DNA of 5,809 nucleotides from IMG/VR virus record IMGVR_UViG_2531839233_000007. One strand, written 5' to 3'. The notes beneath the pieces are model-generated. The model saw only the letters and a list, made by a program, of their open reading frames with translations. It searched no databases and was not told where the DNA came from. The stretch comes from a virus (lineage: Duplodnaviria > Heunggongvirae > Uroviricota > Caudoviricetes). The first letter of the stretch is position 1. Each line of letters opens with the position of its first letter. The position numbers and the translations under genes were made by a program. Below, piece by piece: positions 3,412 to 4,233 of the stretch.

Positions 3412-4200
3412 TTACCCCCTGAAGCCTGGCGGGATCGCACTGTCCGGAAACGAGACGGTGTTAATCTGTCGGAGCAACGTCTCTGGCCGAACACCTTTCG
3501 GCGCGAACAAGCCCTGGTATTCATTGGCGATGCTGTGTCGAATCACCTGCTCAGGTGAAAAACCCTGCTGGCGGAATTTTTCCAGCTCCCGTATCGCCCC
3601 GTTAGCGCCCTGCTCCGTTCGAATCGGTTTTCGCAATGCCTGCCTGAACTGAACCCACTCATGCCAGAGTGTTTCCGGCAACCAGTCAGGCAGCTCGATA
3701 GCCTCCGGTTCGAATTTTTTAGACGCTCGTTTTTGGCGAGGGGGATTTAGGGGGAGATAAGTATTTATATCTTCCTCTTTCTCTTCCTCTGGTAACGCTT
3801 TTTGATCCGTTTTTGTAACGCTGGCAGCGTTACCTTTTCGTTTCAGTTCTCGTATTTTTGTTACTCTCTCGTTTGTAACCGCCCGTTTTTTAGAGCTTTT
3901 CCCGTTATGGCGCTCAAAGTTAGGAAGCGACAACACACCATTAGTTTCGACCAGCCATCCAACCTGAATTAACGCATCAGCAAAACCAGCCATAAAAGTG
4001 ATGCGATCTATTGCACTTTTTGTAACGCCGCGAGCGTTACACTCTGCGTTACCGTCTATCATTTGTTGATCCGCCCATGCCCAGAAGCGAATGACTTTCC
4101 CTAATGCGGCATCTGGATCAATATTCAGAATCTCAGCAAGCCTGAATATTTCCGGCTTATCCGGCGTAATAACTTCGAGCTTTATCCAGTTTGAAGCCAT
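3412..4200 (-). CDS. phage replication initiator / replisome organiser (lambda O analogue, YdaU-like), 262 aa
   Basis: ATG 4200..4198 preceded by AAGGTGA; sits directly upstream of the DnaC-like gene as in lambdoid O-P modules; basic/acidic low-complexity linker (KKRAVTNERVTKIRELKRKGN...EEEKEED) between N- and C-terminal parts; iteron-like palindromes inside the gene. Confidence 0.8.
   Translation of the reverse strand: MASNWIKLEVITPDKPEIFRLAEILNIDPDAALGKVIRFWAWADQQMIDGNAECNARGVTKSAIDRITFMAGFADALIQVGWLVETNGVLSLPNFERHNGKSSKKRAVTNERVTKIRELKRKGNAASVTKTDQKALPEEEKEEDINTYLPLNPPRQKRASKKFEPEAIELPDWLPETLWHEWVQFRQALRKPIRTEQGANGAIRELEKFRQQGFSPEQVIRHSIANEYQGLFAPKGVRPETLLRQINTVSFPDSAIPPGFRG
3790..3900. 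other. putative replication origin core embedded in the initiator gene
   Basis: GTAACGC half-sites at 3792..3798 and 3875..3882 (degenerate), full palindrome 3814..3834, and T-tracts recurring at roughly helical-turn intervals (3799, 3810, 3835, 3855, 3872, 3886, 3897), lying in the linker-coding part of the gene. Confidence 0.35.
3814..3834. repeat. palindrome TGTAACGC-TGGCA-GCGTTAC(C), copy 1 of 3
   Basis: Perfect inverted repeat read directly (core GTAACGCTG-G-CAGCGTTAC, 3815..3833); inside the initiator coding sequence. Confidence 0.6.
4021..4041. repeat. palindrome TGTAACGC-CGCGA-GCGTTACA, copy 2 of 3
   Basis: Perfect 8-bp arms with 5-bp spacer, inside the initiator coding sequence; an extra GCGTTAC half-site at 4046..4052. 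Confidence 0.6.
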
Positions 4201-4212
4201 TTGTTTTCACCT

Positions 4213-4233
4213 TGTAACGCTCGCAGCGTTACA
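4213..4233. repeat. palindrome TGTAACGC-TCGCA-GCGTTACA, copy 3 of 3, just upstream of the initiator RBS
   Basis: Perfect inverted repeat (also readable as 9+3+9) between the YdaT-like stop and the AAGGTGA RBS of the initiator gene. Confidence 0.6.

Follow-up and report, generated by a model that had tools for sequence, protein, structure and literature searches.

The placement of a replication origin within the gene of its own initiator has been a textbook principle since about 1980, and origins of the type found in phage lambda (ori-lambda) are also carried by phages phi80, 82, and P22 (gene 18). Theta plasmids such as P1, F, pSC101, R6K, and pPS10 combine winged-helix Rep initiators with iterons, inverted half-iteron operators, and control clusters such as P1 incA; in these iteron plasmids, inverted half-iterons upstream of rep serve autorepression. 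The lambdoid origin consists of iterons and an AT-rich tract in the middle of gene O (PMC7466680). For the prophage Rac, an active origin, oriJ, is reported (PMC3945230; Potrykus et al., 2000, as cited in PMC11014345), and no sequence-level map of oriJ was found in the literature searched. The subject of this study is a stretch of 5,809 nucleotides from a Caudoviricetes virus (IMG/VR record IMGVR_UViG_2531839233_000007; hereafter the window), which represents the immunity and replication module of a Rac-like lambdoid prophage, and in particular the gene of its 262-amino-acid initiator, a YdaU-like allele on the minus strand (3412–4200, ATG at 4200–4198). DNA-level selection acts on copies of the heptamer GTAACGC in and just upstream of this gene and on a polypurine tract within it. 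We consider it probable, from sequence comparison and from the analogy with ori-lambda, that the heptamers are bound by the N-terminal domain of the initiator, that one of their clusters (cluster B) forms the prophage origin together with the tract, and that cluster A and the site in the 5' untranslated region (5'UTR) are auxiliary or autoregulatory.

A sequence-only reading of the window had described a 21-bp palindrome in three copies, with centers 207 and 192 bp apart. The search for TGTAACGC-N5-GCGTTACA returned exactly three matches in the window, at 3814–3834, 4021–4041, and 4213–4233 (centers 3824, 4031, and 4223), and none in 200 dinucleotide shuffles. An independent repeat finder gave the same palindromes with the same spacings (family D1), in agreement with the earlier description. 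The copies at 4021–4041 and 4213–4233 are perfect, and the one at 3814–3834 has a single mismatch (last base C, TGTAACGCTGGCAGCGTTACC), so that the arms common to all three are only 7 bp long (GTAACGC). This heptamer is present nine times in the window, compared to 0.59 expected copies, and eight of the nine are located inside 3792–4232, in three clusters. Beyond the three pairs, half-sites were found at 3792–3798 and, on the minus strand, at 4046–4052. The palindromes are thus real, but the unit is the 7-bp half-site in phased arrays rather than the 21-bp palindrome.

In the 5'UTR, a head-to-head pair (4213–4233; halves 4214–4220 on the plus and 4226–4232 on the minus strand) ends 13 nt before the initiator ATG and lies directly 5' of the Shine-Dalgarno sequence AGGTGA; the third palindrome had correctly been placed in the 5'UTR next to the ribosome-binding site. 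Cluster A (4022–4052) comprises three half-sites with 12-bp spacing, namely 4046–4052 (−), 4034–4040 (−), and 4022–4028 (+), which read > > < at +148, +160, and +172 in the orientation of the gene and encode a low-confidence surface loop, DGNAECNARGVT. Cluster B (3792–3833), the candidate origin core, contains a head-to-head pair, 3827–3833 (−) and 3815–3821 (+), and an extra half-site, 3792–3798 (+), at a distance of 23 bp from the pair; the corresponding gene positions are +367, +379, and +402. Upstream of cluster B, the segment 3856–3882 (approximately +318 to +344 of the gene) contains degenerate half-sites, which read GCGGTTACAAAC and GAGAGTAACAAAAA in the coding direction (repeat family D2). 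Both intragenic palindromes have the same codon phase within the open reading frame 3412–4200: the copy at 3814–3834 is read GGT-AAC-GCT-GCC-AGC-GTT-ACA (GNAASVT) and the copy at 4021–4041 TGT-AAC-GCT-CGC-GGC-GTT-ACA (CNARGVT).

The one GTAACGC copy outside the clusters, at 2138–2144 in ydaW, was considered as a fourth site and rejected. It is also present in phage 683R6 (L006, position 215), which carries an initiator allele without the origin sites, and it is therefore probably fortuitous. Other repeats were observed in the neighborhood of the clusters. The ydaT–initiator intergenic region contains a perfect inverted repeat, TACCGAAC-N6-GTTCGGTA (4243–4264), just upstream of the 5'UTR palindrome. 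It folds into a strong RNA hairpin beside the palindrome hairpin, is not followed by a T-run on the coding strand, and is only partly kept in the close relatives L001 and L007. An 11-nt repeat, TT(T/G)TTGATCCG, which includes a GATC (Dam) site, is found by cluster B (3799–3809) and by cluster A (4063–4073); the GATC beside cluster B is retained in several relatives, not in all.

Directly 3' of the last half-site of cluster B, the coding (minus) strand carries an A/T-rich polypurine tract at 3756–3791 (CAGAGGAAGAGAAAGAGGAAGATATAAATACTTATC / CCAGAGGAAGAGAAAGAGGAAGATATAAATA), which encodes an acidic linker, EEEKEEDIN, and which we propose as the unwinding or helicase-loading region. Between 3740 and 3899, the GC content is 0.35–0.43 with a strong T skew on the plus strand, and purines account for 70–78% of the coding strand over +300 to +440 (3760–3900). 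The segment 3755–3785 is the fourth least stable 30-bp duplex of the window, the three less stable ones being intergenic.

This layout was compared with that of the ori-lambda group, represented by lambda O and the Stx phages 933W and P27. In lambda O, iterons at +348 to +432 are followed by the polypurine sequence ACAAAAGAAAAAAGAAAAGA / ACAAAAGAAAAAAGAAAAGATTATT; here, cluster B at +367 to +408 is followed by the tract. Both arrangements place the origin, which is putative in the window, in the linker-coding middle of the initiator gene. In both, the A-rich polypurine tract comes after initiator sites with dyad symmetry, and the distance from the ATG is nearly equal. Both also share a modular initiator, of which the (here presumed) site-binding N-terminal part moves with the sites in mosaics, and a helicase-loader gene following it. 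Unlike in ori-lambda, homology of the initiator to lambda O was not detected, with no Pfam match at E ≤ 0.01 and an hhalign probability against lambda O of 0.4%, and its partner is DnaC-like instead of lambda P. The sites also differ, being 7-bp half-sites in convergent arrays with 12-bp phasing, compared to the four 19-bp iterons of lambda, and they are dispersed over three clusters and not gathered in one tandem block of four to six 19-bp iterons.

With the iteron origins of plasmids, the locus shares several clusters of one initiator site, probably with different roles, a variable copy number, a predicted winged-helix domain, and, immediately before the initiator gene, an inverted pair with a possible autoregulatory function. 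It differs from them in having no tandem direct iterons of 17–22 bp and no Rep_3 domain (Pfam), and in the position of its sites inside coding sequence. In plasmids, the inverted repeat for autorepression overlaps the initiator promoter. Here, the inverted pair is located 13 nt before the ATG and is present in 11 of 19 relatives, and no promoter was predicted at the 5'UTR site. By analogy, the origin would work like ori-lambda, but the initiator does not belong to the lambda O family, and the locus is not an iteron origin of the plasmid type. The resemblance to oriJ of E. coli K-12 Rac concerns the prophage type, the gene order ydaS/T-ydaU-ydaV-ydaW, and the C-terminal domain of the initiator, and the candidate origin of the window may occupy a position equivalent to that of oriJ. 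In contrast, the N-terminal domain of the K-12-type YdaU is unrelated, and repeats of the TGTTCAAAC type are found in that allele instead of GTAACGC.

Homologues of the initiator were collected by a protein-pattern scan with one genome per species, which gave 19 loci of 60–72% amino acid identity from Shigella/Escherichia, Mixta, Erwinia, Rouxiella, Winslowiella, Serratia, Yersinia, Pantoea, Rahnella, Pectobacterium, and Samsonia. Nearly all of them contain exact heptamers at three places relative to the ATG: in the non-coding region at −56 to −20 (11 of the 19 non-redundant loci), at +148/+160/+172, and at +334 to +426. The heptamer density in these loci was 11.5 per kb in the region from −100 to +480, compared to 0.26 per kb in the flanks; the motif is therefore rare outside the gene, a point on which the sequence-only reading had asked for a count. 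Relatives with approximately 68% nucleotide identity (the Uetakevirus phages BUCT554, ZX5, and TL-2011b, and a Klebsiella phage) have kept both intragenic sites, and initiator genes of Xanthomonas and Pseudomonas phages likewise have the heptamers at the three places.

When 20 genes identified by their protein homology were aligned codon by codon, the third positions of conserved fourfold-degenerate codons were saturated (1.5–1.95 bits), whereas the codons inside half-sites were fixed or almost so (GGT 17/18, AAC 20/20, GTT 18/18). The base adjoining the heptamer on the outside is free to vary. Both the suggested constraint at the DNA level, laid over the protein code, and the expectation that the sites would be kept in homologous genes amid synonymous drift are borne out by this alignment. 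That the intragenic copies share one reading frame holds only for the window; relatives read the heptamer as xNA or xVT in one frame and as VTx or ALP/ALQ in another, and it also occurs untranslated. The half-site copy number varies from two to five per cluster, giving xNAx tetrapeptide repeats in the protein, and in cluster B of the homologues the two to five half-sites are found in two reading frames. Compared to its Uetakevirus and Klebsiella phage homologues (L002–L005), the window gene has a 12-bp insertion at 4041–4052 (four codons, ECNA), which adds one half-site to cluster A; owing to the 12-bp phasing, the copy number can change without a frameshift. Frame changes, untranslated copies, and variable copy number together rule out an explanation at the protein level. 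In the region of the degenerate half-sites, relatives L011, L013, L015, L016, and L018 have an exact GCGTTAC at +334, and synonymous variation is unusually low at K104, R106, and L108.

A weight matrix built from 127 sites in relatives has its information confined to the heptamer GTAACGC. The arms are invariant, the 5-nt spacer varies, and direct repeats are common among the sites. Of 75 distances between neighboring exact half-sites, 59 measure 12 bp and the remainder 22–24 or 33–35 bp. At 12 bp, the orientation >< was counted 38 times, >> 19 times, << twice, and <> not at all, from which it follows that the arrays converge on one head-to-head pair. Such phasing and orientation rules are typical of protein sites.

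The specificity of the sites for this gene was explored by a scan of 2.9 million viral contigs for the palindrome (16 specified bases), which matched at least 120 stretches. Among the 120 matches listed, 108 encode a homologue of the initiator N-terminal domain, and in these the palindrome is located at −34/−33, +138 to +164, or +342 to +423, with one outlier. The other 12, in which no N-terminal homologue was detected, comprise eight isolated palindromes, consistent with chance, and three to four with half-site clusters of their own, which look like more distant initiators. As a separate observation, an IMG/VR contig (L207, approximately 2930–3010) carries seven GTAACGC half-sites with alternating 12/18-bp spacing in a sequence coding for a linker (KSVTAGVTHAKSVTPGVTH...). 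No homologue of the N-terminal domain was found in it by tblastn, and it may encode a more distant initiator using the same word.

Distant members of the family (30–48% identity) have kept the architecture, and some of them use another word. The repeated word is TGTCCGC in phage epsilon15 and in Pseudomonas phage phiPSA1, and GTAGAC(G) in Ralstonia phage Raharianne, in each case at corresponding places in the gene. A Vibrio phage shows a weakly repeated TGTCAC, and Xanthomonas phage CP2 and Pseudomonas phage PAN70 retain GTAACG. In a second set of 113 loci, chosen only by the polypurine tract, the dominant hexamer upstream of the tract was GTCCGC in 33, GTAACG in at least 21, GTCACG in 10, GTGACG in three, and GTAGAC in three loci, with others in the remainder. 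The identity of the N-terminal domain was 53% within a motif class and 41.5% between classes (permutation p < 0.0005), an association that is in part co-inheritance, as the sites are inside the gene. The weight rests on the concerted change of dispersed copies, since a single word is common to all copies of a genome. Epsilon15 and BUCT554 are both members of the genus Uetakevirus but have different motifs, while Salmonella phage epsilon15 and Pseudomonas phage phiPSA1 have different hosts and one motif. The motif thus follows the initiator, not the host.

The near-identity of the polypurine tract contrasts with this variety of words. Its family form, CCAGAGAAGAGAAGAGAAGAGAAGA, has a 5-bp period and is nearly identical across clades with different iterons; it was found at approximately +370 to +420 in Salmonella, Pseudomonas, Xanthomonas, and Ralstonia phages (L106, L107, L110, L111, L114, L121, and L224). 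The scan of viral contigs with 19 nt of the tract, CAGAGAAGAGAAGAGAAGA, yielded 113 loci, 97 of which encode the N-terminal domain under study. The tract starts at +359 to +536 and is read in frames 2, 1, and 0 in 65, 25, and 7 loci, respectively, with translations such as REEKRRED, PPEKRREES, and YQRREEKS. As it is read in all three frames, it is a DNA element in its own right.

A natural exchange is provided by phage 683R6, which has the same ydaT, ydaV, and ydaW neighbors and a K-12-type YdaU of 285 amino acids. The C-terminal domain of this protein is 84% identical to that of the window initiator and its N-terminal domain is unrelated. No GTAACGC sites were found in this allele. Its linker region contains (GA)TGTTCAAAC twice in direct and once in inverted orientation (+389 to +460), followed by an A-rich stretch, and these repeats are candidates for the iterons of the classical Rac oriJ. 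The mosaic joint, CCCCCTAAATCCCCC on the coding (minus) strand (3740–3754; PLNPP), corresponds to +510 to +530 of the 683R6 gene. The part of the gene beyond the joint is common to the window and the K-12 Rac-type YdaU, and hhalign matched the two proteins only from residue 147 on. As the joint follows closely on the tract, the module that moves as a unit comprises the N-terminal domain, its sites, and the tract. In database proteins of 376 amino acids, the N-terminal half is the same but is joined to yet another C-terminal part.

An AlphaFold2 model of the initiator, built on 32 sequences, predicts a confident N-terminal domain (residues 10–95) of helices and a beta hairpin, a disordered linker (residues 96–159), and a C-terminal O-like/DnaT-like domain of three helices. 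The N-terminal domain, as modeled, resembles winged-helix DNA binders. Both intragenic clusters fall in predicted disordered segments: cluster A in the low-confidence loop of residues 49–60, with predicted local distance difference test values below 50 at residues 53–57, and cluster B, encoding residues 123–136, together with the acidic stretch in the linker. In profile searches, the protein matched PHROG 2509, 'replication initiation protein' (E = 3e-88), and only its C-terminal half matched the 'O-like' PHROG 678 (phrog_678). The label DnaT (primosomal protein I) given to some relatives was rejected for the window protein, which scored 16.9 bits over 19 residues against NCBIfam PRK02854, compared to a cut-off of 201; the BUCT554 homologue scored 83 bits, over its C-terminal 96 residues only.

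Selection on the DNA, the site grammar, the restriction to one gene family, the concerted replacement of motifs, and the lambda-like layout are the observations from which we infer the binding protein, the firing of the origin, and the roles of the distal clusters. The sequence-only reading had suggested initiator-binding sites by analogy with the lambda iterons in O, and the comparisons above support that interpretation. In the proposed mechanism, the winged-helix-like N-terminal domain would recognize heptamers inside its own gene. Initiator dimers would occupy the head-to-head pairs, whose centers are 12 bp apart, and further protomers would bind flanking half-sites 12, 23, or 34 bp away that point toward the pair. 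The resulting nucleoprotein complex, together with transcription from the early rightward promoter, would destabilize the polypurine tract, and the C-terminal O-like/DnaT-like domain would bring in the DnaC-like YdaV with host DnaB. The origin would accordingly comprise cluster B (3792–3833, with degenerate sites to 3882) and the tract (3756–3791) in the linker-coding middle of the gene. Cluster A (4022–4052) and the 5'UTR palindrome (4213–4233), located 200 and 400 bp upstream, might loop or handcuff to the core or might serve autoregulation.

Several points weigh against this proposal. The two additional conserved clusters, including that in the 5'UTR, at approximately 200 and 400 bp upstream have no counterpart in ori-lambda, and the separate roles assigned to the three clusters are guesses. 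The distance between clusters A and B ranges from 207 to approximately 300 bp among relatives, so that their helical phase is not constant. With a length of ~35 bp, the A/T-rich tract is short, and it is not among the eight least stable segments at 50 or 100 bp. In the homologue L024 (47% identity), no repeated motif was seen. The fold evidence from the model is modest, the association of motif class and N-terminal domain noted above is partly trivial, and no paper on this allele was found in the literature searched. The K-12 allele, moreover, differs in precisely this module from the one in the window.

Among the other explanations, one is that the sites are purely regulatory operators, bound by the initiator or by another phage regulator and blocking or tuning transcription and translation of the replication operon, with the origin located elsewhere. 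The 5'UTR palindrome, which abuts the ribosome-binding site and is kept in 11 of the 19 relatives, the likeness of head-to-head pairs to classic dimer operators, and the autorepressive half-iterons of plasmids speak for it, and cluster A and the 5'UTR copy could be regulatory also with cluster B as the origin. As a complete explanation we regard it as unlikely: a promoter and terminator scan gave nothing above shuffles near the sites and no sigma-70-like promoter near any cluster, the three to five phased half-sites, with the polypurine tract of the whole family beside them in the linker, correspond to the layout of an origin, and no other regulator co-occurs across the family, in which the neighboring genes differ. 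Binding by a different protein, for example a host factor or another phage product (YdaW, with its winged helix and DUF1627, or a protein for packaging or partition), is improbable in our estimation. The window does encode other proteins with helix-turn-helix or winged-helix folds, namely YdaW, the DUF977 product, and those resembling cro, cII, and cI. The K-12-type allele, however, keeps YdaT, YdaV, and YdaW without having the sites, and in Uetakevirus, Xanthomonas, and Pseudomonas phages the sites are present although those neighbors are missing. Motif classes differ within a host group and are shared between hosts. A host-factor site was rejected since the motif class does not track the host, and a packaging (pac) site since the sites follow the initiator domain across unrelated virion types.

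The sequence-only reading had offered RNA hairpins as an alternative, in which the palindromes would act in the early mRNA on stability, processing, or translation of the initiator. The 5'UTR transcript does fold into two adjacent hairpins (z = −3.8), one of which is the palindrome, and any 8-bp palindrome can form such a stem. But lone half-sites and direct repeats (19 >> pairs, and << pairs spaced by 23 bp) cannot pair, the arms are invariant with no compensatory changes while the 5-nt spacer is free, other clades replace all copies in concert and not pairing alone, and no Rfam family was matched. As direct repeats and invariant arms are left unexplained, a hairpin role cannot account for the set of sites, and we hold it to be very improbable. 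The chance that the repeats are a by-product of an N-A-x-x-V-T peptide constraint, of coincidence, or of recent duplication, with no function at the DNA level, we consider minimal. The two intragenic copies do encode similar peptides (GNAASVTK and CNARGVTK), but these are located in disordered, indel-rich segments, relatives read the heptamer in the other frame (VTx, ALP/ALQ) or carry it in non-coding sequence, synonymous positions are frozen only inside the heptamers, and sites are conserved from Enterobacterales to Xanthomonas and Pseudomonas phages. Frozen heptamer codons and frame changes have largely refuted this explanation.

Binding of the heptamers by the initiator, with cluster B and the tract as the origin, would fit into a wider proposal, which we put forward tentatively, as a possibility that we consider more doubtful. 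A widespread, uncharacterized initiator family in phages and prophages of Enterobacterales, Pseudomonas, Xanthomonas, Ralstonia, and Vibrio may share one origin design, in which clade-specific arrays of 6–7-bp half-sites occupy two or three fixed places and the near-invariant (GAGAA)n tract is a common, sequence-specific unwinding or helicase-loading element, recognized either by the part of the initiator that is conserved or by a host factor that is likewise conserved. Firing would be controlled by a loop or handcuff of the upstream clusters. In the literature searched, there appears to be no description of the family, of its recognition code, or of the invariant polypurine element. With a likely origin and its recognition code located, replication of the prophage after induction becomes directly testable. 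The words GTAACGC, GTCCGC, GTCACG, and GTAGAC offer natural pairs of initiator and site specificity. The gene also presents a case of overlapping codes, in which the protein sequence of loop and linker (the xNAx repeats) is dictated by DNA sites, and a tract that stays nearly invariant in three reading frames suggests a mechanistic element common to the family.

The window contains further genes of the Rac-like module. Downstream of the initiator gene, the minus strand encodes a DnaC/IstB-like, YdaV-like helicase loader (2659–3405; Pfam IstB_IS21, E = 2e-20; Bac_DnaA, 1.7e-8), which is presumably the partner recruited by the C-terminal domain of the initiator and whose counterpart is annotated as ydaV or DnaC-like in related records. 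It is followed on the same strand by the winged-helix, YdaW-like DUF1627 gene (1875–2687) and a DUF977 gene (1437–1874). Upstream of the initiator gene, a YdaT/cII-like gene (4278–4700) and a cro-like gene (4697–4951) are found on the minus strand, and a cI-like repressor gene (5031–5450) on the plus strand. Rfam and tRNA scans of the window gave no match. The window DNA shares 99% identity with induced E. coli phages and 94.5% with a 'phage Rac' record, in which the initiator gene is called ydaU; its RefSeq label is 'hypothetical protein'. The prophage module with this initiator allele is present in 687 of 5426 complete E. coli genomes, O157:H7 strains included.

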